Below are positions 36,333 to 49,094 of a stretch of DNA of 64,000 nucleotides, piece after piece; position 1 is the stretch's first letter, and every line of letters starts with the position of its first letter. Origin of the DNA: a virus. The DNA is taken from IMG/VR virus record IMGVR_UViG_3300031649_000001, positions 1 to 64,000 of that record; one strand, given 5' to 3'. Made by a program: the position numbers and the translations under genes. The notes beneath the pieces were generated by a model. That model ran no database searches and had not been told where the DNA came from. It worked only from the letters and a program-made list of their open reading frames with translations.

Positions 36333-38450
36333 ATGCCGCTCTGGAGCATCCACCGCCGCCCCAAGCACCTCATCCGCCGCAACCGCGCGGGCAAGGTCAC
36401 CGACTACCAGGTGGTCGGCTCCACCGTCATGGCGTCGGCCGCTCTCGTCAGCAAGGCCCAGGTCCGTACCGTCGTCGGCCGCAAGCAGGACTGGCAGCGC
36501 GACGCCTGGGACCTCTACGACACCGTCACCGAGCTGCGCTTCGGCGTCTCGTGGATCGCCAACGCCTGTAGCCGGGCGCGCCTGTACGTCGGGCAGATCG
36601 ACCCGGACGGCTCCAGCGAACCCGTCCCCCTGGACCTCGCCGAGGACGAGGAGACCGGCGCCGTAGACCTGGACGCCCAGCAGGCGGTCGCCGTCCTGGA
36701 TGAGCTGGGCGGCGGCCAGCTCGGGCAGGCGGAGATGCTGCGGCGCCTGTCCATCCACCTCAACGTCCCCGGCGAGAGCTACCTGATCGGCTTCGACGAC
36801 CCCGAGGACGAGGGCGCCGGGTTCGGGCAGGACGTCACCAACGTCGTGGTCGGCGACGACGGCGACCAGGGCCGCCGGTGGCTGGTGTGCTCGGCGGACG
36901 AGATCCAGTCCACCGGCTCCGGCATCAAGATCGTCAGCCCGGACATGCCCAACGAGTTCATCGAGGTGGACCCCGAGCAGTCCACCATCCTCCGCATCTG
37001 GCGCCCGCACCCCCGCCTCGGCTACAACGCCGACTCCCCCCTCCTCGCCCTGCGCCAGCCGCTCCGCGAACTCGTGGACCTGTCCGCCCACATCACCGCC
37101 AGCGCGGAGTCCCGCCTGGCGGGCGCCGGTGTCCTGTTCGTGCCGGACGAGCTGACGACCCCCAGCCCGGAGCAGTCCGAGGGCGCCAACCCGCTGCACC
37201 CGGATCCCTTCACGGCCTCCCTGATCGAGGCCATGGCCGCGCCGCTGAAGAACCGCGACAGTGCCAGCGCGGTGGTGCCGCTGGTGGTGCGGGGCCCGGC
37301 CGACAAGGGCAAGGAGCTCAAGCACCTCAGCTTCAGCACCAAGCTGGACGAGAACGTCCAGACCCTCCGTGACTCCGCCATCCGCCGCGTCGCTACTGGC
37401 ATGGACATGCCACCGGAGGTTTTGACCGGTCTGGGCGATACGAACCATTGGTCGGCCTGGCAAGTGGAGGAATCGGCCATCAAGCTACATATCGAGCCAT
37501 TGCTCGGCTTGATCTGCGACTCCCTCACCACCAACCTCCTGCGCCCGGCGCTCAAGGCGCTGGGGATCAAGGGCTGGCAGAAGTACGCCATCTGGTACGA
37601 CACCAGCGACCTCACCATGCGCCCCAACCGGGCACCCGAGGCCGACACCGCGTTCGCCAACCAGGTCATCTCCGACGCCGCCTACCTGCGGGAGCTGGGC
37701 TTCTCCGAGGAGGACGCCCCCGACGACGACGAGCGCGCCCGCCGCCTGATGGAACGCGTCTGCCTCACCAACGCCAACCTCGCCCCCTACCTGCTGCCGC
37801 GCCTGGGCATCCCGCTGCCGCCGGAGGCCATCGCCGCCGCCACCCCCCAAGGGACATCGGCGCCGCTCGGCAACCCGACCAACGTGAGCCGGATCGGCGG
37901 CTACCCGGGCACCCCCGGCCCGACCCCGGCCGGTGCGCCCGGCCGCCCGGCCGCCCGCCCGGCCGGGCTCCCGTCGGCCGGGGGACGCAACGGCCCGCCC
38001 CAGGCAGGCGCCTCCCGCCAGGGAGCCGTGACCCGCGACAGCCTGGAACGCGCCATGACCGCCAGCGCCCGGCCGCGCCTGGCCCTGGACAAGGCAGGCG
38101 ACTGGCGTACCCGCTGCCTGGACATGGCCGTCCGCCGCGCCCTGTCCCGGGCCGGACAGTTCCTCATCCGCGCCACCCCCCGCAACCAGCGCACATCCCT
38201 CCAGCAGCTCCCCCCCGAGGCCGTCCACCTCACCCTCCACGCCGACCCGGGCCAGCTCGACCAGATGCTCCAGAACGCCTACGTCGAGTTCCACGAGTCC
38301 ACCCCCGACGAGGCCTGCCTGCACCAGGCGGTCGACCACTACGTCCGCGCCCTCATCCTCGCCCGCGAGGAACACCAGACCGACTACCTGGACCGGGCCA
38401 TCGCCCAGTTCCAGTGCGACGGAGAGGGGGCCGTCCTTGCCCACGCCTGA
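36333..38450 (+). CDS. portal protein (cluster-B actinophage-like)
   Basis: WQRDAWDLYD.V.ELRF, L.VPGE.Y, SRL.GAGVLFVP and NHWSAWQ motifs; position between terL and MuF. Confidence 0.85.
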   Translation: MPLWSIHRRPKHLIRRNRAGKVTDYQVVGSTVMASAALVSKAQVRTVVGRKQDWQRDAWDLYDTVTELRFGVSWIANACSRARLYVGQIDPDGSSEPVPLDLAEDEETGAVDLDAQQAVAVLDELGGGQLGQAEMLRRLSIHLNVPGESYLIGFDDPEDEGAGFGQDVTNVVVGDDGDQGRRWLVCSADEIQSTGSGIKIVSPDMPNEFIEVDPEQSTILRIWRPHPRLGYNADSPLLALRQPLRELVDLSAHITASAESRLAGAGVLFVPDELTTPSPEQSEGANPLHPDPFTASLIEAMAAPLKNRDSASAVVPLVVRGPADKGKELKHLSFSTKLDENVQTLRDSAIRRVATGMDMPPEVLTGLGDTNHWSAWQVEESAIKLHIEPLLGLICDSLTTNLLRPALKALGIKGWQKYAIWYDTSDLTMRPNRAPEADTAFANQVISDAAYLRELGFSEEDAPDDDERARRLMERVCLTNANLAPYLLPRLGIPLPPEAIAAATPQGTSAPLGNPTNVSRIGGYPGTPGPTPAGAPGRPAARPAGLPSAGGRNGPPQAGASRQGAVTRDSLERAMTASARPRLALDKAGDWRTRCLDMAVRRALSRAGQFLIRATPRNQRTSLQQLPPEAVHLTLHADPGQLDQMLQNAYVEFHESTPDEACLHQAVDHYVRALILAREEHQTDYLDRAIAQFQCDGEGAVLAHA

Positions 38451-41400
38451 CCCGTGGCTCTCGGAACGCATGCGGGAGTACACGCACATCCGCCGGGCCG
38501 AAGCCACCCTGTACCCGGCCATCCGCGACGCCGTGGAGGCGTTCCTCACCGAGGCCCGCCAGGGTCCGCTGGCTGCGCTGACGGCCGCCGCCGGAGACGA
38601 CGACACCAACCCGGCAGGCATCCCCTCCGAGGCCACCTGGCGGCGCATCCTGGACCGCTTCGTCCTGGGGCCCACCCGCTCCCTGTGGCGCGGCTCCTTC
38701 GGCCGCGTCACCAACCGCGCAGATGACACGCCCGACGACGACGACGGCCACGGCGCCGGACTCGGCGACCGCCTCGCCGGGTTCCGGCGCGTCTTCGCCG
38801 ACCGGCTGCTCCGCGCCCTCCTGCACCGGCCGCGCGGCGAAACCCCCCAGCAGCTCCAGGCCCGCCTGGCCGCCCTGATGACGCTGGAGGAGTGGGACGG
38901 CCAGGTCATGACCATGACCCGCACCGAGACCATGACCGCCCTCAACGCCGGAGCGGCACACGGCGCGCTCGCCGAACAGGAGCGCACCGGCCAGCCGTGG
39001 GAGAAGCGCTGGCAGTCCACCCCCGACCAGCGCGTACGCGAGACCCACCGCCACGCCGACGGCCAGATCCGCCCGCTGGCGGACCCGTTCGAGATCGGCG
39101 GCCACCGCCTCCAGTTCCCCGGCGACCCGCTCGGCCCCGCAGGCGAGGTCATCAACTGCCGCTGTAGCGCCCGCTACGGGCCCGCCGGAGAACCCGCCCT
39201 CACCGCCGCCTCAGCACCACTGGAGGAGCCCATGACCACGCCCACCGTCACCGAGACAGGACCCGTGACCGTGGAGCCCAGCGGCCGGTGGCGCGGCGTG
39301 CTCGGCTTCATGGACGAGTGGTCCGCGGACCAGCGAATGCTGGCCACCCCCGAGGAAGGCGTACGCGCCCGCCCGCTCCCGCTGCCGCTCCTGGTCCAGG
39401 GCACCCTGGCCAAGGGCCACGACGGCTCCGAACTCGGCGTCGGCGTCGTCGACCGCATCTGGACCGAGGGCACCGCCGTATGGGGCGAAGGCCGCTTCGA
39501 CATGGAGGACCCCATCGGCCGGGCACTGGCCCGCAAGGTCGGCCTCGGGTTCATCCGCTTCGTGTCGCTGGACGTGGACGACGCCACCGCCCACCAGGTC
39601 CTCCTCAAGGAGGACGGCACGATCGTGCAGGACGGCAACCCCAACGACCCCACCCTCATGATCGGCGACGTGTACGACGGCTGGCGCGTCATGGGCGCCA
39701 CCCTCCTCGCTCACCCCGCGTTCCCCAACGCCGCCATCGCCCTCGCTGACGAGAACGGCCAGGCCCTCACCGCCTCCGCGCTCGGCGCGGAGTTCGAGGA
39801 GATCGTGGGCTACAACCCCGAGTGGGGGTGTGTGAAGCAGGACGAGACCGGCGCCTGGACGGAGGCCGACTGCCAGGACCCGGACGCCGTCCCCGCCAAC
39901 CCCACCGGCGACGGCCCGTTCGACCCCGAGCAGGGCCAGGGCGAGATCCCGGCCGCCCCGGAAGAGGTGGCCGTCGCCACTGACGACTCCCAGGAGCCCA
40001 CTGAGGACGACGCCACCGACCCGGCGGACGATGTCCCCGAGGACATCGCGGCGGACGACGAGCAGGCCGCTGAGGAGCTTGACCCCGACGCCGACGCCCC
40101 GGCCGGAGAAGTCCCCGACGAGGGCGCCCCCCTGGACGAGGTCCCGTGCGTGGTGCCGACCGAAGACGGCACGGGGTGGGTGGCCGCGCCGTGTGACGCC
40201 CCCGGCGCCGTACCCGCCAACGCCACCGGCGACGGCCCCGCCGAACAGGGCGACGGCCTGGAGCTGGCCGTCACCCTCGCCGAAGAAGACGCCGCCAGCC
40301 CGGCAGCCCAGTCGGGCCCCACGCACGCCGGGCTGGCGGTCACCGCGCAGGACACCGGCCGGGTGCTGCTGCTCCAGCGCGCCCTGTCCGACGAGGACCC
40401 CGCCGCCGGGATGTGGGAGTTCCCCGGCGGCGGCATTGAGGAGGGCGAGACCCCCGAGGACGCCGCGTACCGGGAGTTCGCCGAGGAGACCGGCTTCGAT
40501 CTGCGCGGATCGGGCGAGGTGGTCGACTCGTGGACGTCGGAGAACGGCGTCTACCAGTGCTTCGTGATCCTGGTGCCCACCGAGGCCGAGGTCGGCATCA
40601 ACATGGACGCCGAAGACCGCCACGTTCTCAACCCCGACGACCCCGACAGCGACAGCATCGAGGTCGTGGCGTGGTGGACGCCGGAGAACCTGGCCGACAT
40701 GGGCGCCCTGCGCGAGGAGGTCAAGGAGACCCCCTGGGAGAAGATCACCGGCGCCCGTCAGGCCCCCGCCGCCGCCCCGGAAGAGGTGGCCGCCGCCGTG
40801 GTGGAAGCGGCCGAGGCCATCGCCCAGGAGGCCAGTGAGCCCCCGGCCGGGTGCGAGCCGTGCCAGGCCGTCGCCATCACCGCCTCCGCCACGGACACCT
40901 TCGCCCCCGGCTGGATGCCGCCCGCCGAATGGTTCGAGCCCCCCCAGGGGGGCGGCGGCGCCTGGTCCGTCCGCGTGGATGTGGAGACCGGCCAGGTGGC
41001 GGGCTACCTGGCCCCGTGGGGCGGCTGCCACGTCGGCTTCAAGGACCGCTGCGTGCCGCCGCCCCGCTCCGCCTCCGGCTACGGCTACTACAACATCCGC
41101 CCCGTCCGCACCAGCGGCGGCACCGTGTACTGCGGCCTGATCACCATGAACACCGGGCACGCCAAGCCGCACGACACCGCGACCACCGCCATGGCCCACT
41201 ACGACCACACCGGCACCCAGGCCGCCGTGATCCGCGTCGGCGAAGACGCCCACGGCATCTGGGTGGCCGGGGCGGTCCTGCCCTTCGTCAGCCAGGAAGA
41301 CCGCCTCCGCCTCTCCCTGTCCTCCCTCTCCGGCGACTGGCGCGAGGTACGCGGCGGCGCCGAGCTGATCGCCGCGCTCGCCGTCAACTCGCCGGGCTTC

Positions 41401-42072
41401 CCCCTCGCCGTCAAGAAGACCGGCACCGACGGCCAGTTCTACTCGCTGACGGCCGCCGGGTTCTTCCCCGAGGAGAAGGAGCCGGAGCTGACCGTGGCCG
41501 CCACGGACGACAGCGCGTTCGTGGCGTCCGGCAGCGCGCAGTCCTTCGAGCTGCGCACGGCGGAGCCTCTCGACCTGGCCTCCGCCGTCGCCGACGAGCT
41601 GGAAGGCCGCGCCGCCCGCCGCCAGCGCGCCGCCTCCCTGGGCGACCGCATGACCGCCTTCCGCGAGACCGCCAGCCAGCGCCGCGCGGTCGAGCTGGCC
41701 CGCCGCACCGAGCTGGCCAAGGGGAAGATCCGGGGCCTCAAGCCCCAGCCCAAGACCGAAGTCCCCATGCCCCTGGCCGGGTTCGGCGGGCTCCCGGTCC
41801 CCTCCAACCAGGACATCGCCCTCGCGAAGAACTGGGTCGACGAACAGGGCGGCCTCCCGTCCTACATCAAGCGCATCACCGACCACCTCACCGCCAAGGG
41901 CATGGACACCAGCCGGGCCATCGCCACGGCGGTGAACGCCGCGAAGAAGATGTGCGCCTCCGGCGATCTCAACTGGCCCGGCATCCAGTCCGTGAACCCC
42001 GGCAGCAAGGCCGAGGCGTGCGCGGCGGTCCAGAAGTGGGAGGCCATGAAGGCCGCCGCGAGGGCCAGCTGA
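38437..42072 (+). CDS. MuF minor head / capsid maturation protease / NUDIX polyprotein
   Basis: MuF motifs KRWQS..DQRVRETH..ADGQ and FPGDP...EVINCRC; protease-like LPLPL...GATL; Nudix box GGGIEEGETPEDAAYREFAEETG; SLSGDWR domain. Confidence 0.85.
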   Translation: MPTPDPWLSERMREYTHIRRAEATLYPAIRDAVEAFLTEARQGPLAALTAAAGDDDTNPAGIPSEATWRRILDRFVLGPTRSLWRGSFGRVTNRADDTPDDDDGHGAGLGDRLAGFRRVFADRLLRALLHRPRGETPQQLQARLAALMTLEEWDGQVMTMTRTETMTALNAGAAHGALAEQERTGQPWEKRWQSTPDQRVRETHRHADGQIRPLADPFEIGGHRLQFPGDPLGPAGEVINCRCSARYGPAGEPALTAASAPLEEPMTTPTVTETGPVTVEPSGRWRGVLGFMDEWSADQRMLATPEEGVRARPLPLPLLVQGTLAKGHDGSELGVGVVDRIWTEGTAVWGEGRFDMEDPIGRALARKVGLGFIRFVSLDVDDATAHQVLLKEDGTIVQDGNPNDPTLMIGDVYDGWRVMGATLLAHPAFPNAAIALADENGQALTASALGAEFEEIVGYNPEWGCVKQDETGAWTEADCQDPDAVPANPTGDGPFDPEQGQGEIPAAPEEVAVATDDSQEPTEDDATDPADDVPEDIAADDEQAAEELDPDADAPAGEVPDEGAPLDEVPCVVPTEDGTGWVAAPCDAPGAVPANATGDGPAEQGDGLELAVTLAEEDAASPAAQSGPTHAGLAVTAQDTGRVLLLQRALSDEDPAAGMWEFPGGGIEEGETPEDAAYREFAEETGFDLRGSGEVVDSWTSENGVYQCFVILVPTEAEVGINMDAEDRHVLNPDDPDSDSIEVVAWWTPENLADMGALREEVKETPWEKITGARQAPAAAPEEVAAAVVEAAEAIAQEASEPPAGCEPCQAVAITASATDTFAPGWMPPAEWFEPPQGGGGAWSVRVDVETGQVAGYLAPWGGCHVGFKDRCVPPPRSASGYGYYNIRPVRTSGGTVYCGLITMNTGHAKPHDTATTAMAHYDHTGTQAAVIRVGEDAHGIWVAGAVLPFVSQEDRLRLSLSSLSGDWREVRGGAELIAALAVNSPGFPLAVKKTGTDGQFYSLTAAGFFPEEKEPELTVAATDDSAFVASGSAQSFELRTAEPLDLASAVADELEGRAARRQRAASLGDRMTAFRETASQRRAVELARRTELAKGKIRGLKPQPKTEVPMPLAGFGGLPVPSNQDIALAKNWVDEQGGLPSYIKRITDHLTAKGMDTSRAIATAVNAAKKMCASGDLNWPGIQSVNPGSKAEACAAVQKWEAMKAAARAS

Positions 42073-42278
42073 TGGCCATGAGCAAGAAGGACTACTGGGC
42101 CATCGCCAACGCGGTGGCCGACACGAAGCGCTGGCTGGGTGACGACGACGAAGCCGGGCACGCCGCCCTGTCGTCCGTCACCCGGCAGCTCGCGAGCGCC
42201 TGCGCCCGCCAGTACCGGGGCGGCTACGGCTTCAACCGCTCCTTGTTCCTTGAGGCCTGCGGATACCCGCAGGACTGA
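42072..42278 (+). CDS. small hypothetical phage protein
   Basis: MS.KDY.AIA...FNRSLFLEACG. Confidence 0.6.
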   Translation: MAMSKKDYWAIANAVADTKRWLGDDDEAGHAALSSVTRQLASACARQYRGGYGFNRSLFLEACGYPQD

Positions 42279-42301
42279 CCGCACCACCGTGGGAGAGACG
42301 A

Positions 42302-42799
42302 ATGCCGACCAGCACCGACGATGAGGTCATCCCCGCAGAGCTCAACAAGGGGCACCTCATCCCCGCCACGTACGAGGGCACCCTGCGTACGTTCCTCATG
42401 CTCAACCGCGACCAGGTCCCCGTCGCCTCCGGCGCCATGTTCACCGACGGCCGCATCGTCGTCATGTCGCAGACCGGCCGCACCTGCCACCGGTACGCCA
42501 ACACCGGCGCCCTGATGGAGGACTGGTGGGGCAAGGGGATGCTGCTGTGGTGTCTGGAGCGCGGCGGCCTCGACTACGACGTGGCGCCGCGCCGGTTCAT
42601 CTACGAGCGGACCGAGGACGAGACCGGCACCAGCGGTGAGGGCATCGCCGTGGAGGGCGTGGTCTTCCCCCACGGGGGCGTGGTGCTCATGTGGCTGGGC
42701 GAGGTCCGCTCGATCGTGGAGTGGTCGTCGATCGAAGAGGCCCTGGGCATCAGCGGCCACGAGGGGCGGACCCGGGTGAAGTGGCTCGACCCTGCCTGA
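42302..42799 (+). CDS. hypothetical actinophage protein
   Basis: SG.G.AVEGVVF..G.V...W; a degenerate copy of the motif lies in the N-half. Confidence 0.65.
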   Translation: MPTSTDDEVIPAELNKGHLIPATYEGTLRTFLMLNRDQVPVASGAMFTDGRIVVMSQTGRTCHRYANTGALMEDWWGKGMLLWCLERGGLDYDVAPRRFIYERTEDETGTSGEGIAVEGVVFPHGGVVLMWLGEVRSIVEWSSIEEALGISGHEGRTRVKWLDPA

Positions 42800-42967
42800 T
42801 CCACGCGGATCAGACGGCCCCCCAGCCTCCCAACAGGTTGTGACTCCGATACGACGCCGGGGGGCCACCCGACAGACCCGCACACAGGGCGCCTTCTTGC
42901 CGTCCCGCTCTGTGCCCGGTTGCACACCGAACGTTAGCGGCCCGGCGCGGCCGGTGAAGGAGGAACC

Positions 42968-43171
42968 ATGGGTTGCAATTGCGGAGGCCGCCGGGGAGCG
43001 GTCGCCTCCACGGTGATGGCCGGAGGCACGGCGAAGGTGTTCCGGCTGACCCACCCCAACGGGGCCACGGTCGACTACTGGACCGAGCTCGCCGCCGAGA
43101 AGGCACAGGAGGCCACCCCCGGCTCCTCCTACCAGGCCGTCGACCACCGCACCGGGCAGCCGATCACGTGA
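42968..43171 (+). CDS. small MGCNCGG-type protein
   Basis: AAGGAGG RBS; MGCNCGG N-terminus typical of actinophage structural regions. Confidence 0.65.
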   Translation: MGCNCGGRRGAVASTVMAGGTAKVFRLTHPNGATVDYWTELAAEKAQEATPGSSYQAVDHRTGQPIT

Positions 43172-43374
43172 TGAACCTGTTCTGGTTCTGGTTCTGCGGC
43201 GCCGTGGCGATGGCGGCGCTCGGGCCGTCGCCCGCGTGGCTGGCCTCCGGCTTCCAGGAGACCGGCGGCAAGGACCTGCCCCCGGCCAAGCGCTGGACAC
43301 TGTGGGGAGTCATGGTCGTGGGCTGGCCCGCAGCCCTGGTGTGGTTTGCCCGCGACGCCATGTACGGCCGCTAG
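43171..43374 (+). CDS. small membrane protein
   Basis: Two hydrophobic segments. Confidence 0.5.
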   Translation: MNLFWFWFCGAVAMAALGPSPAWLASGFQETGGKDLPPAKRWTLWGVMVVGWPAALVWFARDAMYGR

Positions 43375-44018
43375 ACTGGCGGCGCGTACTCCGGTCGTGC
43401 GGACGACGCTCCACCGGCCGCCCCCGGCCCACCGCCGGGGGCGTTCGCACGTCCCCGCAGCGTCGGGTGCTCCTGCCACTCGCCGATCAGCCCCTCGAAC
43501 TCCGGATGACCCGCGCCCCACTTCGCGCGCATCGAATCACCCAGGCTTCCATCCGCGCGGATCGGCCGGAACCACACCTCGCCCAGGCTCACCCGCGTCA
43601 CCTGGCACAGCATCGGCTCCCCGTCCCAGCCCGTCAGCCGCGCATGCCGGAACCGCGCCCGCACATACGGCACCGCCGACACCCCGTTACGGTCCGTGGG
43701 CCGCTCCAGCGCACGCCACTCCCGCTCCTTCACCGGCTCCGGCGCAGGCTCCGCCTCCTCGGCAATGTCCTCCGGCGCGGCCAGCGGCCACAGCCCCAGC
43801 GCCCGGTTCAGCGACCCGCCCGGCAGCGGACGCCCGGCCTGAGCCGTGACGCGCTGCGTCCCGTACCGCCAGCCGTACGCGGACGGCCGCGCCCGACGGT
43901 GTCCCCGCCGGGCGCGCTCCACCTGGGAGGCCGCCCCCTGAGCGCTGGCGTACGGACCCAGCAGCAGCACCGGCCCCCCGCCGGGCGGCTCCCCGACCAC
44001 GTAGTGCCCCTCGCTCAC
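43371..44018 (-). CDS. hypothetical protein
   Basis: Last gene of a coupled minus-strand operon. Confidence 0.6.
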   Translation of the reverse strand: MSEGHYVVGEPPGGGPVLLLGPYASAQGAASQVERARRGHRRARPSAYGWRYGTQRVTAQAGRPLPGGSLNRALGLWPLAAPEDIAEEAEPAPEPVKEREWRALERPTDRNGVSAVPYVRARFRHARLTGWDGEPMLCQVTRVSLGEVWFRPIRADGSLGDSMRAKWGAGHPEFEGLIGEWQEHPTLRGRANAPGGGPGAAGGASSARPEYAPPV

Positions 44019-45223
44019 CAGTCCATCGTCTCCTCACGTACCCGCTGCGCCTCGCGCTCGCGGATCTCCTTCTCCTTCGCCCGGCCCAGGTTCGCGAGCT
44101 TCACGTCCCGGTGGCCGGACGGGTCGCTCCGCTGCGGGTTCACGGGGATGATGCCGGTGCCCGGCTCCTGGCCCTCCTCCAGCAGCTCCCGCTTCGTCCA
44201 GTACGGGTCAATCCAACGGACCGACCGCAGCGACCGCTTGGGCCCGTGGGGAACGCTCTTGTAGTGACCGGCGCGGTGCTGCGGCCCGTACTCCACACCG
44301 GTCGGCTCGGACACCCCGCCCCGGTCCCGCGTCTGCTCCTGCTGCGCGCGCATCCGGTTGGCGTGCAGCGCCGGACCCACATGCCAGCCCACGCGGACAT
44401 AGAACGGGTCACGCGGCGGCGCCTGCGGCTTCCGGCCCTTGGGCGTCGGCGGCGGCGCGGGCTCCTCCATGTCCCGGTTGTCACAGCACAGGTACGTCAT
44501 GATCGACATGAACCCCGGCAGGATCTGCCGGACCATCTTCATCTCGTCGCCGTCGCTGTGCGTGTTGTGCCAGGTGTTCGTGTGGTCGATGACGTCGTCC
44601 ATGGTGAACGGGTCGTCGGTGGACGGCAGCACGAACAGCGGGGTGGCTACGTCCTCGTACCACTCCGGGCCCCGGGAGTCCTCCCACTCCACCCACGGCA
44701 TGACCGACAGCCCCTCCGACCGCCGGTCCGTGGTCGGGCAGAACGCCTCCCGCCCCACCCGGCCGGTGAGGAAGTACGCCCGGATCAGGCCGGTGGTCCC
44801 GTTGTTGGAGCGGAACGGCCACGGCCGGGGCAGCGGCACCATCGGGCTGATGTGGGGCAACCGGGAGAACAGCCCGCCGGGCAGCTTGCCCTTCAGGTCG
44901 GCCCGGTAGAGCTGGGCCGCCATCTCCGGGTTGATGTCGTAGGCGATCCGCCCCTGCTGCCGCCAGATGTCCACGATGGCGTTCCGCGAGACGTGGTCAT
45001 TGACCGCGATCACGTCTTCCACGCCGATCTTCTCGATGAGCGACCGGCCCCACTGTGCCGGTTCGCCCCGGCGCAGCCTGCGTACGTTCTCGCTGGCCTG
45101 CGGGATGCCCCCCAGGTCGGACGACAGCCGGTTCGTGGACGCGAGGATGCGCTCCACCGCGTCGTTGGTCTCCGCCGCCCGGCGCATCCGCACCGACGCC
45201 CTACCCGCGCTCTTCTTCCCCAT
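44015..45223 (-). CDS. hypothetical protein, paralog of 3228-4472 (AcrVA2-like C-terminus)
   Basis: LF.RL.H..P, YLCC...E, GW.VG.A and PQHRAGHYK...RWIDPYW. Confidence 0.6.
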   Translation of the reverse strand: MGKKSAGRASVRMRRAAETNDAVERILASTNRLSSDLGGIPQASENVRRLRRGEPAQWGRSLIEKIGVEDVIAVNDHVSRNAIVDIWRQQGRIAYDINPEMAAQLYRADLKGKLPGGLFSRLPHISPMVPLPRPWPFRSNNGTTGLIRAYFLTGRVGREAFCPTTDRRSEGLSVMPWVEWEDSRGPEWYEDVATPLFVLPSTDDPFTMDDVIDHTNTWHNTHSDGDEMKMVRQILPGFMSIMTYLCCDNRDMEEPAPPPTPKGRKPQAPPRDPFYVRVGWHVGPALHANRMRAQQEQTRDRGGVSEPTGVEYGPQHRAGHYKSVPHGPKRSLRSVRWIDPYWTKRELLEEGQEPGTGIIPVNPQRSDPSGHRDVKLANLGRAKEKEIREREAQRVREETMDW

Positions 45224-45644
45224 GACCCCCCTCTTCCATCTGCGCGGATCGGGCCGCGTCCTCCCGTTCCCAGCGCTCCACCTCGGACGGGAGCGCGTAC
45301 AGGATGTCGGCCATCCGGGTCGGGCGCTCCCGGCCGACGGCCGCCCACTCCGTACGCGGGCGCCCCACCACGGAGCCGTCCGCCACCATCTCCGCCAGCA
45401 GCTCCCGCAGCCGGTTGCGCTTGAGCGCCCGGCCCACGTGCCCCAGCGGCAGCGACAGCCCACGCAACTCGGCGATGCGTTCGGCGACTTCGAAGTCCGT
45501 CCACGGCGTCTCGTTCACGCCGAACGGGTCCGGGTTGTCCGGAGGAGCGTACGGGTTGGGCGGCTGGGGGCCGACGGCCGCCAGCACATCCTCCCGGGTG
45601 GCCTCGTACCGCTGGTCGGAATGCTCACTACGCGGCACCGGCAC
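45201..45644 (-). CDS. hypothetical protein
   Basis: Coupled ORF. Confidence 0.55.
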   Translation of the reverse strand: MPVPRSEHSDQRYEATREDVLAAVGPQPPNPYAPPDNPDPFGVNETPWTDFEVAERIAELRGLSLPLGHVGRALKRNRLRELLAEMVADGSVVGRPRTEWAAVGRERPTRMADILYALPSEVERWEREDAARSAQMEEGGHGEEERG

Positions 45645-45843
45645 TCACCTCCGCCGCGTGCTGCTCCACCAGGTCGCGCGCCATGGTCTCGCTCCAGCCC
45701 TCCCACCCGGCCACCAGCGACACCAGCGCGTCGGCCGCCGACCGGGCCTCCCCGCAGTAACGGCACCGCGTGGGGTTGGCCGGGGCGTACGCGTGCCACG
45801 GGCTGTGCGCACACATCCATCCCTCGGGCTTGCCGATCGCCAT
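45628..45843 (-). CDS. small Cys/His hypothetical protein
   Basis: CAH..WH...CRYC. Confidence 0.5.
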   Translation of the reverse strand: MAIGKPEGWMCAHSPWHAYAPANPTRCRYCGEARSAADALVSLVAGWEGWSETMARDLVEQHAAEVSAGAA

Positions 45844-46544
45844 CAGTGCGTCGCCTCGTCTGCGGCCTGCGGCGCCGGGGCGGCCTCCCTGGCCTGCTGC
45901 GGGCTCTCGCTGTCCGTCTTGATCTCCTTCCACTCCCCGCCGTCCAGCGGGCGCGCCAGCAGGTCATACAGCCACCACTGCCACGTCGGGGAGGTGTGGG
46001 GGTCGTAGTCCGGGTTGCGGCGCCCGCGCTGGATCTTCCAGTGCCGTCCGTGGCCCCGAGCGTTCCACTTGCCGTCACCGTGATGCACCCAGATCATCTC
46101 CGGTGCTTCCTCGGCGAGCAGCGCGCGCCCCTCCGCCGTGCCCACGCCCTCGGCGAGCAGGGCCCCGTCGGCGCGGTAGACGTCCCACGCGCGCAGGTTG
46201 CCGCCCGGCCGCGCGTCCATGTGCCCGCCCGCCAGGGTGAGCCGCGAGTCGTTGTGGGCGTAGGTCTCCGCGCCCGTGTCACCGAGCGGCTTCATCTCCA
46301 CCACCGCGACGACATCGTCCGGGCCGTAGGAGTGCTTTACCTTCGCGTACCGCCCGTTCTTCTCGTTCCATTCACGCGTGGTGATCGTGACCCAGCCGTC
46401 GGCGTCGAACGTGACGGCCTCGGCCTTGAGGAAGCTGGCGCCGCTCGGCGTGCTGTCGTCCGGCCAGTACCGGCGCACCAGGTGCGCGCCCTCGGTGATG
46501 CGGTCACGCAGGCGGGTGACGGTGTCCTCGGTGAAGTGCGGCAT
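45843..46544 (-). CDS. hypothetical protein
   Basis: AGGAG RBS, GC3 bias. Confidence 0.7.
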   Translation of the reverse strand: MPHFTEDTVTRLRDRITEGAHLVRRYWPDDSTPSGASFLKAEAVTFDADGWVTITTREWNEKNGRYAKVKHSYGPDDVVAVVEMKPLGDTGAETYAHNDSRLTLAGGHMDARPGGNLRAWDVYRADGALLAEGVGTAEGRALLAEEAPEMIWVHHGDGKWNARGHGRHWKIQRGRRNPDYDPHTSPTWQWWLYDLLARPLDGGEWKEIKTDSESPQQAREAAPAPQAADEATH

Positions 46545-46613
46545 GGCGGGTCTCCTGTGTTCTATCTGCGGGGATGGGGGAGGGGCGGCCGGTCGGCCGC
46601 CCCTGGGAGTGGA

Positions 46614-47018
46614 TCAGACGTAGTACTCGTGGCCGCCCGTGCCGTAGTCGTAGCCACCGAAGGCGGCGGCGCGGCGCTCATCCTCGTCGACCTCCCAGCG
46701 GTACTGGTCGTTGGTCTCAAGGTGGCGCTCGTACGCCGTCTCGGCGTCGTACTCGGCCTGGTAGGCGGCGCGCTCCTCTGCGGCTTCGCGCTGGGCGTAC
46801 TGGTCCTTGTAGTCGGCCCAGTCGGCGTTCCAGTCGCGCTCCGGCTCGGGGGCGAACAGGTCGGCTCCGGCCTGACGGCGGGCGCGCATCTCGCGGGCCG
46901 CCTTGTGGGTGCGCTCCACGTGGATCTTGACCTCGTAGCCCGACTCGTAGCACGGCTCGTTCGGCGCGGACTGGCAGGTGGGGCAGTAGAACAGCATCGC
47001 GGCGACGACGGCGGCCAT
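46614..47018 (-). CDS. zinc-finger protein with acidic/aromatic tail
   Basis: CPTCQSAPNEPC...H.ER; AGGAG RBS; first gene after the IR promoter. Confidence 0.65.
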   Translation of the reverse strand: MAAVVAAMLFYCPTCQSAPNEPCYESGYEVKIHVERTHKAAREMRARRQAGADLFAPEPERDWNADWADYKDQYAQREAAEERAAYQAEYDAETAYERHLETNDQYRWEVDEDERRAAAFGGYDYGTGGHEYYV

Positions 47019-47063
47019 CTTGGGGCTCCTCGGCTCGGTGGTGGTGGGGGCGTCTGCCCCCTT

Positions 47064-47115
47064 GCGAGACACGAAGTTATCACGACGGGGTGGCGCGCGC
47101 AAACTCTGTGTCACA
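47064..47115 (-). promoter_or_regulatory. IR-family promoter driving the leftward operon
   Basis: On the minus strand: GTGACACAGAGT-TTGCGC-17 bp-TAACTT-CGTGTCTCGC. Confidence 0.7.
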
Positions 47116-47246
47116 TCTGGCACCTGATCCACGCGGATAAGAGCCCGCTTGAGCACGAAGCGTGAGCGGTCGGCTACTCTACGTAGAACGCTCTGCTGGT
47201 TGATGGGCCGAGGGCACGGTAACGAGATCCCGAGAGGGCCCATGCC

Positions 47247-49094
47247 GTGAGCTTCATCAATGATCTTCTCAACCGGCTCGCAGATGTCCCGGCAGAGGAC
47301 CAGCCCGCAGTCATCCAGCAGCACCTCACGGAGCACCCCGAGGTCACGGCCGCAGAACTCAGCCAGGCCGTACTGGAGCTGTACGACGAGCTGTCCCCCG
47401 AGGACGCCGGACCCGCCAGCGAAGACGTCCTGGCCAAGCTGGAGACCCTGGCCCGGGTCGCCGACGGCATCGGGGTCGTCACCCAGCAGCAGGACGAGCG
47501 CTCCGCGCGCGCCGCCGAGATCGGCGAACGCCTGCGCGGCCTGCGCGAGCCCACCGCCGACACCACCGAAGACGGTGAAGGCGACGCCGACCCGGCTCCC
47601 GAAGCGGAGCTGACCCCCGAAGACGCAACCGCCGAGGACACCCCCGAGGAGCAGCCGGGGGACACCCCGGACGAGACCGAGGAGGGAGCCGGAGCCCAGG
47701 CACGAGAACTGGTGGCAGCCAACGTGAAGAACACCGCCCGCGTCCCGCTCGGCACCCGCCGGGGCGCCGTCCCCGCCACGCAGGAGGGCGACGGCCCGTC
47801 CCCCTTCGCGACGTACAACCTCATCGCCGCCGCCGACGTCCCCGAGTTCGCCACCGGCCAGGAGATGGAACACGGTCTGTCCGACGTGGCCCGCGCCTGG
47901 GAGAACCGGATGGGCCCGATGATCACGGGCAACGTCAACTCCGGCCGTGACGGCGAGCGCACCCGCGTGGGCCTGGCCCGGATCAAGCGCAAGGTGGACG
48001 ACGCCTTCGTCATCCGGGAGGACGGCCGCCAGGCCGAGGAGGTCATCGCCCACGCCACCGACGAGTCCCGCCTGCCCGGCGGCTCCCTCGTGGCGGCGGC
48101 CGGATGGTGCGCCCCCAGCGAGCAGCTGTACGACCTCTGCCCCATCCGCATGACCGAAGAGGGCATGATCGACCTCCCGGCCGTGACGGCCAGGCGTGGG
48201 GGTATCCGCTACCCGGCCGACTTCGACTGGTCCGCGATCTGGGGCTCCACCGGCTTCTACCTCACCGAGGCCGAGGCCATCGCCGGGGTCGAGAAGTCCT
48301 GCGTCGAGGTCCCGTGCCCGCCGGAGTTCGAAGAGTGCCGCATGGACGTGAGCGGGCTCTGCATCCGGACGCCGATCCTGATGGAGCGCGGCTGGCCGGA
48401 GCGCGTGGAGCAGTTCATCCAGGGCTCGCTCCTGATCCACGCCCACAAGATGAACGCCCGCAAGCTGGCCAAGATGGAGGCCATGAGCACGGCGGTCACC
48501 TTCCCGGCCGTCGCCGACCCGGACCCCGCCGCCGCCATCGTCGACCCTCACGGCCCCGGTGCGGTGGAGTCGCTGCTGTCCATCCTGGAACTCCAGGTCC
48601 AGTACCAGCGCTACCACTGGCGCCTGTCGCAGAACGCCACGCTGGAGATGGTGGCGCCGTACTGGATGCGCGGCATCCTCAAGTCCGACCTGCGCAAGAA
48701 GCTCGGGATCGACAACCGGTGGAACGTCTCCGACTCCATGGTGGACGGCTACCTGCGCGCGGTCGGCGTCTCCCCCCAGTACGTCTACGACTGGCAGGAC
48801 GCCCTCAGCTCCGGCACGGCGAGCGACTTCGGCGGTGACGTGCCCACCGAGTGGCCCGACAGCGTCAAGTTCCTCCTGTACCCGGCGGGCACGTTCTTCC
48901 AGCTCCAGGCGGACGTCATCAACCTGGACGGCGTCTACGACCACGCCTCGCTGATCGAGAACATCTACACCGCCATCTTCACCGAGGAGGGCTGGCAGGT
49001 GTGCTCCCGCTGCCTCCAGTCGTACGTCGTCACGGTGCCGCTGTGCGCCAACGGCATCTCCGGCAGCCAGCAGCTCACCACCTGCTCGGCCTAG
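47247..49094 (+). CDS. major capsid protein (hexamer type) with N-terminal scaffold-like region
   Basis: SLVAAAGWCAPSE..YD, RGGIRYP and FTEEG motifs of cluster-B-like capsids; acidic helical N-terminus. Confidence 0.85.
   Translation: MSFINDLLNRLADVPAEDQPAVIQQHLTEHPEVTAAELSQAVLELYDELSPEDAGPASEDVLAKLETLARVADGIGVVTQQQDERSARAAEIGERLRGLREPTADTTEDGEGDADPAPEAELTPEDATAEDTPEEQPGDTPDETEEGAGAQARELVAANVKNTARVPLGTRRGAVPATQEGDGPSPFATYNLIAAADVPEFATGQEMEHGLSDVARAWENRMGPMITGNVNSGRDGERTRVGLARIKRKVDDAFVIREDGRQAEEVIAHATDESRLPGGSLVAAAGWCAPSEQLYDLCPIRMTEEGMIDLPAVTARRGGIRYPADFDWSAIWGSTGFYLTEAEAIAGVEKSCVEVPCPPEFEECRMDVSGLCIRTPILMERGWPERVEQFIQGSLLIHAHKMNARKLAKMEAMSTAVTFPAVADPDPAAAIVDPHGPGAVESLLSILELQVQYQRYHWRLSQNATLEMVAPYWMRGILKSDLRKKLGIDNRWNVSDSMVDGYLRAVGVSPQYVYDWQDALSSGTASDFGGDVPTEWPDSVKFLLYPAGTFFQLQADVINLDGVYDHASLIENIYTAIFTEEGWQVCSRCLQSYVVTVPLCANGISGSQQLTTCSA

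Follow-up and report, generated by a model that had tools for sequence, protein, structure and literature searches.

The polyprotein examined here is encoded in the first 64,000 nucleotides (nt) of the IMG/VR virus record IMGVR_UViG_3300031649_000001 (this 64-kb stretch is referred to as the window), and it is best introduced by the described systems in which viral head proteins are processed by a dedicated protease. In herpesviruses, assemblin cuts proteins of pseudorabies virus (PrV) at YLQA-T and VQA-S, sites which include the release site between protease and scaffold (PMC4498786), and a substrate of the human cytomegalovirus (HCMV) assemblin carries the sequence ..N-A-S-S.. (PMC13486704). 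In T4 and in SPN3US/phiKZ a single prohead protease (gp21 and gp245, respectively) cuts many head proteins at a shared short motif, and enzymes are left in the head and ejected (PMC10052503, PMC9026906). Major capsid proteins (MCPs) of the Rosebush type are thought to be fusions of scaffold and MCP that are cleaved after assembly (10.1101/2020.01.21.914465), and the authors of a cryo-electron microscopy (cryo-EM) study considered the cleavage site of the delta domain not to be predictable (10.1101/2022.09.09.507160). Finally, section 3.5.2 of Iyer 2022 describes phage Nudix domains in fusion with MuF, portal or capsid-processing serine peptidase, for which packaging and injection are considered probable (PMC9503650), so that NUDIX as a predicted packaged cargo of such fusions is already known, and the part of Iyer 2017 that deals with polyvalent proteins places assemblin-like peptidases at their C-termini (PMC5512222).

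The head polyprotein of the window combines, in this order, a MuF domain, a first protease-fold domain (D2), a linker that is acidic and contains Cys modules, a NUDIX domain, a second protease-fold domain (D4) and a C-terminus made of a coiled coil and a helical scaffold-like part (Table 1). It carries five copies of the motif Φ-[T/V]-A-[A/S] (Φ being L, I, V or M), which is also present in the portal protein and in the MCP. It appears probable, without being certain, that this motif is the site at which a maturation protease cuts (Φ-[T/V]-A↓[A/S]), and that the resulting pieces of the polyprotein include a NUDIX protein which is packaged and probably ejected. A first-pass annotation, made from the sequence alone, had proposed that one open reading frame (ORF) of 1211 amino acids (aa) joins MuF and NUDIX, and this was borne out, the profile matches to the phage MuF family (PF04233) and to the NUDIX hydrolases (PF00293) both being above the Pfam gathering thresholds. 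Its description of the domains held for MuF, the protease-like domain, the acidic linker and NUDIX, while its “further domain” is actually a second protease fold (D4) and its “C-terminal domain” is actually a 55-residue helix followed by a helical bundle. In the literature searched, no description was found of an Ala-ended motif, of its family-wide bracketing of the protease, of its placement at the delta junction of the MCP or of tandem protease folds.

When compared with herpesvirus assemblin (pUL26/pUL80a, with R and M sites), the locus is alike in the protease fold, in the order protease, linker, scaffold-like region, and in a motif of the Φ-x-A↓S/T type after the protease; it differs in that there is no detectable sequence similarity, two protease folds are present, MuF and NUDIX are fused upstream, the motif also occurs in MCP and portal, and the cut is a predicted one. 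Its likeness to the T4 gp21 system (Alt, IPI-III) lies in D2 and D4, both of which match the gp21 structure 5jbl. Proteases of the T4 gp21 and SPN3US gp245 type cut after Glu (L/I-x-E, or S/A/G-x-E), and the cargo of T4 and SPN3US consists of separate proteins with N-terminal propeptides, whereas here the cargo lies inside the protease polyprotein and the motif ends in Ala. With HK97 (gp4/gp5) the locus shares an MCP whose N-terminal scaffold domain is removed, here by prediction, by a phage serine protease; unlike HK97, there is no Pfam S78 match, and the MCP far exceeds that of HK97 in size (615 aa) and contains an acidic linker as well as several candidate sites. As in polyvalent proteins and MuF-effector fusions, to the extent that the sections mentioned above describe them, MuF, an enzymatic effector and an assemblin-like processing peptidase are found in one polypeptide; the peptidase of polyvalent proteins is C-terminal, whereas here a scaffold-like region of ~200 aa follows it, and those sections contain no description of a cleavage motif or of a second protease fold. 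Actinophage proteins annotated as “capsid maturation protease and MuF-like fusion protein” (Gordonia phage Clawz gp42, Athena gp13) possess homologous MuF and D4 domains (37-47% identity over the domains), and these phages agree with the window phage in MCP family and in the positions of the motif. Unlike the polyprotein of the window, the fusion genes in the matched annotated actinophage records have no NUDIX annotation.

Two AlphaFold models were made, covering aa 1-470 and aa 775-1211. In these models the assemblin/T4 gp21 fold is seen in D2 as well as in D4, each of which has an invariant His and an invariant Ser at matching topological positions. D2 aligns with T4 gp21 (5jbl) at Z 9.8 and a root mean square deviation (rmsd) of 2.8 over 125 aligned residues, and with herpesvirus proteases at Z 8-9.6 (VIA-align); its invariant residues are His328, Ser377 and Asp379, the first two being invariant across 38 sequences, and the His-Ser spacing of 49 residues is one which we take to be that of HK97 gp4 (His65/Ser114). 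D4 aligns with 5jbl at Z 6.8 over 121 residues (VIA-align) and with the protease of herpes simplex virus 2 (HSV-2) at E 8.7e-3 and a Foldseek probability of 0.95, its invariant residues being His865, His908 and Ser965 (46 sequences); it also matches phrog_18402, “head maturation protease”, at E 1e-38, and is a homologue of the “capsid maturation protease” of actinophage annotations. D2 can be assigned to the assemblin/prohead serine protease fold (MEROPS S21/S77/S78 type), as can D4 more weakly, and the conserved His and Ser are found in both, their catalytic equivalence resting on topology and not on residue-level superposition. No similarity between D2 and D4 was detected by BLASTP, and a duplication, if there was one, is ancient. 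Searches of Pfam, NCBIfam and PDB sequences with D2, D4 and the C-terminus returned nothing save a weak match to a spore-surface family. D4 alone matches 3,857 representative clusters (50% identity) at E<=1e-3; among the best 150 matches, protein length ranges from 249 to 1979 aa, and neither D4 nor D2 is covered by a Pfam model.

The motif was searched as [LIVM][TV]A[AS], a pattern that was defined post hoc, with expected numbers taken from composition-preserving shuffles. Five copies are present in the polyprotein, as compared with 0.83 in shuffles (P=0.0015), and portal, polyprotein and MCP together contain 10 copies where 1.57 are expected (Poisson 6e-6), while no enrichment was seen among the remaining 106 proteins predicted in the 111-kb genome (15 copies, 17 expected). 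Since the pattern had been chosen post hoc, its conservation in independent homologues represents the stronger test: 75 homologues contain 354 copies, 58 being expected, and among 14 full-length homologues (37-84% identity) the majority retain the five polyprotein sites as [A/S/G]-[L/I/V]-T-A-[A/S] next to linker residues that vary. The three most distant of the 14 have no site 3, and their sites 2 and 4 are displaced or modified. Synonymous codons vary at the motif sites among homologues, and therefore selection acts on the peptide; on these sequence comparisons, the motif is conserved while its flanks vary. The genome has a GC content of 72% and is Ala-rich, the DNA encoding the motif is repeated (families D3 and D14) and the NUDIX segment stands between the in-frame copies of a 27-nt repeat, all of which could suggest that the motifs are a by-product of Ala/Thr-rich high-GC linkers or of DNA recombination junctions and have no function at the protein level. 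Such an origin is extremely improbable in view of the excess over composition-matched shuffles, the lack of enrichment in the rest of the proteome, the conservation of the peptide through synonymous changes, also in lower-GC phages at 31% identity, and the bracketing of D4 described below (76-83% against ~10%); chance and composition were rejected on the basis of the enrichment, the synonymous codons and this family-wide bracketing. Cleavage of the host signal-peptidase type at A-x-A was likewise dropped, the proteins being cytoplasmic and having no hydrophobic leader.

All the motifs that the first-pass annotation had listed for polyprotein, portal and capsid were recovered at the positions it had given (Table 1), and its placement of the polyprotein motifs at or near domain borders agrees with the boundaries predicted by the models. 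Model confidence, expressed as the predicted local distance difference test (pLDDT), falls below 50 at aa 51-55, 258-274 and 448-459, directly after sites 1 to 3, and is also low at aa 808-819, around site 4; a low-pLDDT linker thus begins at each of sites 1 to 3, and another contains site 4. At site 1 the motif columns are 0.84 conserved as compared with 0.50 for the flanks, and Mycobacterium phage Athena gp13 has a counterpart, ALTAAG, at aa 42. Site 2 is kept in the close full-length homologues and shifted in the distant ones (P0028, P0036, P0037), and relatives that lack MuF start at about this site. Site 4 is replaced by L/M-A/V-A-S in the distant three. Site 5 occupies the position of the assemblin release (R) site, i.e. 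the border between protease and scaffold.

Bracketing by the motif was evaluated family-wide, with the strict motif, in 139 of the best 150 D4 representatives (<=50% identity). A copy lies within 35 aa upstream of the D4 core in 105 of the 139 (76%; consensus A-[LVI]-[VT]-A-[SA]-[AG]), and 5-45 aa downstream of it in 116 (83%; consensus [SA]-L-V-A-[AS]-G), as against a rate of ~9-10% expected from the frequency of the motif elsewhere in the same proteins; D2 and MuF have a flanking motif in 33-47% of their homologues. Gordonia phage Clown has no D2 yet retains the motif in portal, MCP and the flanks of D4. Because phages without D2 keep the motif, D4 would be chiefly the protease that recognizes it, and is on these comparisons the likely motif-specific enzyme. 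In Clown (L007, 7135-7692), a gene for a 2H phosphoesterase (“RNA ligase”) located directly 3’ of the stand-alone protease gene begins with M-T-A-A-G, which has the appearance of a break at the very motif connecting cargo and protease where the two are fused.

Both portal motifs are conserved in closer relatives, while the most distant one (L003) has only T-V-A-S at the first and lacks the second; the portals of Athena and Clown carry ALTAAS / AITASA near their N-termini. The MCP is composed of a conserved N-terminal region, predicted to be scaffold- or delta-like, a variable acidic linker (aa ~101-150) and three conserved motif islands. Across 120 homologues, the first island, E-[L/P]-V-A-A (aa 154-158), has E in 91, V/I in 110 and the two A residues in 98 and 105; the second has A in 119 and A/S in 120 at aa 194-195, and the third has L and A in all 120 at aa 281 and 283. 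Directly after the acidic linker, Athena gp15 has DPALVAAGK and Clown gp23 EPVLASAKR, in MCPs that are 31% identical to that of the window phage. A further copy of the pattern, VTAA at aa 33 of the MCP, is not conserved in relatives and was dropped as a candidate site.

Several observations weigh against cleavage at the motif by D4. The fold match of D4 is moderate (Z 6.8), and neither D2 nor D4 matches the Pfam peptidase families S77, S78 or S80, with 1 of 46 relatives reaching S77 at E 0.08; therefore they are to be regarded as fold-level relatives and not as members of those families. In the polyprotein there is no motif between the acidic linker and the NUDIX domain, and therefore the predicted NUDIX fragment (aa 447-816) includes the linker. 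Of the MCP homologues, 27% have Pro at the first position of the motif, and no experiments on cleavage, on the content of virions or on ejection were found in the literature, either for this phage or for its relatives. Experimental cleavage sites for this protease and MCP family were likewise not found, the mass-spectrometry supplement for Rosebush giving percent coverage only. Moreover, in D4 or D2 proteins that stand alone the motif is placed right at the N-terminus (residues 5-12 of Clown gp20; near residue 9 in P0025 and P0039-44), and therefore it is not merely a signal for release at a junction; a cut there would remove few residues, and the motif could therefore have another role, although short pro-peptides do have a precedent in T4 gp21. 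The copy after D4 is a short strand in the strongly conserved hydrophobic context [SA]-L-V-A-[AS]-G-Φ-Φ, and the third MCP copy (L-V-A-A-G-W-C) lies inside an invariant core block, so that either may be structural.

These last three features are what would be anticipated if the motif were a docking or structural element, i.e. a pseudosubstrate or assembly tag for the cleft of the protease, the scaffold or the portal, which is not scissile and is shared through recruitment to the procapsid core. We consider this quite unlikely, given that the upstream copies are placed in disordered, variable linkers of unrelated proteins, that the motif fits the P3-P1’ pattern of assemblins of homologous fold, and that the MCP family is expected to lose an N-terminal scaffold part and has the motif exactly at the junction. 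That the motifs at domain borders are recognized by a protease is strongly supported by their conservation against variable flanks, the low-pLDDT linkers of the models, the bracketing of D4 and the delta junction of the MCP. To this extent the first-pass annotation, which had proposed that the phage protease cuts the polyprotein at these motifs and releases a packaged NUDIX hydrolase, finds partial support; as for the cargo, its proposal fits the independent fusions of NUDIX to MuF, portal and protease proteins and the prediction made in the section of Iyer 2022 referred to above (PMC9503650).

According to cleavage at the motif, MuF and the scaffold-like tail would carry the polyprotein into the procapsid, where the phage’s own capsid maturation protease, chiefly D4, would recognize the motif. 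The cut is proposed to fall after the motif Ala, because assemblins of the same fold cut Φ-x-A↓S/T, the analogy being with the herpesvirus site Φ-x-A↓S. Five products would be generated, namely MuF, D2, a NUDIX piece of ~370 aa (aa 447-816), D4 and the scaffold part, and the same protease would trim the portal and the N-terminal scaffold/delta region of the MCP. The folded NUDIX piece would remain in the head, would probably be ejected with the DNA, and might then hydrolyse a host molecule of the nucleotide type, such as ADP-ribose, NAD-derived signals or RNA 5’ ends. A scaffold function of the C-terminus is suggested by the model, in which the layout looks like that of a protease-scaffold. 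Its helical domain is conserved across the polyprotein homologues; few parts of the family are as well conserved as this domain (aa 1124-1210, 41806-42066; NWVDxQGGLPxYIKRI...AIATAVNxAKKxC), which has a conserved MKAAA-x-A-S at its end and is also found in relatives without a BLASTP-detected D2, some of which also lack MuF. It may represent the capsid-binding end of the scaffold.

The NUDIX domain has an intact Nudix box (G-x5-E-x7-R-E-F-x-E-E-x-G-F, aa 665-687, nt 40429-40497), as had been noted in the first pass, and it matches NUDIX proteins in the PDB to E 5.5e-11, with mixed neighbours; all matches to NCBIfam equivalogs are far below cut-off, and the sequence gives no specificity, whether of the ADP-ribose, MutT, RppH or NudC type. 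The domain shares its ORF with MuF, the protease and the scaffold-like C-terminus, and so is linked to a part that would target the head, and it is flanked (aa 444 and aa 814) by the same motif that occurs in the other putative head substrates, MCP and portal. Among homologues the interval between D2 and D4 is variable and holds NUDIX, nothing, or inserts of 250-500 aa without a known family; a 2H/LigT phosphoesterase is located just upstream of D4 in P0053, in which no D2 was detected, and an ADP-ribosyltransferase and RMF lie between MuF and D2 in P0057. Fusions of NUDIX to MuF, to portal and to protease proteins arose independently, and such repeated joining to different head-internal proteins argues, at the level of sequence, for selection on packaging.

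The NUDIX domain could instead act late in infection or inside the head, for example in nucleotide sanitation, or be digested like scaffold, without being an ejected effector and regardless of whether the junctions are cut or the protein stays whole. Such a role would be in keeping with its closest matches, which are of the MutT/house-cleaning and RppH types (none at equivalog cut-off), with the N4 virion RNA polymerase, which in the part of Iyer 2017 concerned is packaged uncut, so that large head proteins can be (PMC5512222), and with ejection through a siphovirus-type tail being putative. It is unlikely nonetheless: the independent fusions to MuF, portal and protease, together with the fact that NUDIX, in these polyproteins and in this slot, alternates with typical effectors directed at the host, argue for selection on delivery, and a folded piece of ~40 kDa would presumably be unable to exit a closed procapsid shell. 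A NUDIX effector delivered into the host is, on these sequence relationships, plausible.

Two Cys modules (C-x(13-14)-C-x3-AVPAN-x-TGDGP, at 39829-39900 and 40147-40221) and the CEPC at 40852-40863 contribute six Cys in total to the region around the acidic linker; the Cys-module region has no Pfam match, and in distant homologues the module stands directly before D4 as ..C..C..DAVTAN. It may serve in metal binding or disulfides, or be a degenerate copy of the cut-site motif. The 27-nt direct repeat mentioned above (39952-39978 and 40771-40797) is identical at 26 of 27 positions, 22 nt of which are an exact match, with the copies in frame and 819 nt apart; both copies encode AAPEEVA, and the acidic linker, the second Cys module and NUDIX all lie between them. 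If the two copies recombined, NUDIX would be lost without a shift of the reading frame; as the cause of the loss of NUDIX in P0013 the repeat was rejected, P0013 lacking a different interval.

Table 1. Features of the head module, with positions in the respective protein and in the window.
Feature	Protein position (aa)	Window position (nt)	Strand	Remarks
Portal protein		36333-38450	+	705 aa; phrog_776 E 2.5e-159; Pfam portal
Portal motif VMASA	32	36426-36440	+	C-terminal to variable N-terminus
Portal motif AMTASA	574	38052-38069	+	between variable Pro/Gly-rich linker and conserved C-terminal domain
Head polyprotein ORF (P0001)		38437-42072	+	1211 aa; TTG start; GC at third codon positions (GC3) 0.94 (coding-type)
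Site 1, ALTAAA	47-52	38575-38592	+	end of first long helix of MuF region
MuF domain	133-245	38833-39171	+	PF04233, 53.1 bits, cut-off 29.6
Site 2, ALTAAS	254-259	39196-39213	+	immediately C-terminal to MuF
D2, first assemblin/prohead-protease-fold domain	278-448	39268-39780	+	“protease-like domain” of the first-pass annotation
Site 3, ALTASA	443-448	39763-39780	+	end of D2; conserved in 11/14 full-length homologues
Two C-x(13-14)-C-x(3)-AVPAN modules	465-488, 571-595	39829-40221	+	flank variable acidic stretch
NUDIX domain	635-753	40339-40695	+	PF00293, 73.4 bits, cut-off 21.1
Site 4, AITASA	813-818	40873-40890	+	4 residues before D4; preceded by CEPC (aa 806-809); conserved in 11/14 full-length homologues
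D4, second assemblin/prohead-protease-fold domain	843-986	40963-41394	+	“further domain” of the first-pass annotation
Site 5, SLTAAG	1003-1008	41443-41460	+	short strand just after D4, flanked by low-confidence stretches
Scaffold-like C-terminus	1044-1099, 1124-1210	41566-42069	+	55-residue helix and conserved helical domain (AF2 model)
MCP		47247-49094	+	615 aa; phrog_777 E 2.4e-154
MCP motif ELVAAN		47706-47723	+	right after acidic linker
MCP motif LIAAA		47820-47834	+	second island; L-V-A-A-A-D in homologues
MCP motif SLVAAAG		48084-48104	+	third island; L-V-A-A-G-W-C in homologues

The window covers the first 64 kb of one contig of 111,261 bp, which has ~72% GC and nearly all of its genes on the + strand. 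A terminase, portal, capsid and tail-fibre module is present in the window, and because this module is carried the source is a phage genome of the Streptomyces type. Megablast of the head module against phage records gave no match, and no phage record covers at least 80% of the polyprotein query. Relatives are contigs of ~100-109 kb in Streptomyces assemblies and in IMG/VR; those in the Streptomyces genome assemblies are separate contigs (S. andamanensis 106,095 bp; others 98,887-109,048 bp), and because they assemble separately an extrachromosomal prophage or a co-sequenced phage is suggested, rather than an integrated one. Between the polyprotein gene and the capsid gene lies a block of genes on the minus strand (43371-46544; 215, 482, ~147 and 233 aa) without Pfam matches, and the 482-aa ORF, the one checked against PDB, had no match there either; the gap between polyprotein and MCP amounts to 5.2 kb here and to 1.7-3.6 kb in relatives, and therefore this interval is a variable insertion site. 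The MCP had no match among PDB sequences.

With regard to the actinophages as a whole, we would put forward only tentatively, as something possible and rather doubtful, that their prohead-protease family (more than 3,800 clusters) shares the assemblin specificity Φ-x-A↓S/A as an ancient trait of the HK97/herpes lineage, and that in this Streptomyces phage group duplicated active proteases bracket a swappable effector slot (for NUDIX, 2H phosphoesterase or other inserts), which would constitute a self-processing cassette for the delivery of anti-defence enzymes. A shared Ala-directed specificity, if true, would connect phage prohead proteases with herpesvirus assemblins in function, and not only in fold. 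D2 and D4 are candidates for new family definitions. If the motif is a real cut site, the mature N-termini of capsid, portal, MuF and protease proteins would become predictable in ~900 sequenced actinophages, including the cluster B mycobacteriophages and many phages of Gordonia, Microbacterium and Streptomyces. The boundaries of the enzyme fragments that are carried into the cell would then also be defined, and the internal cargo slot would be a place to look for new anti-defence and host-takeover enzymes.

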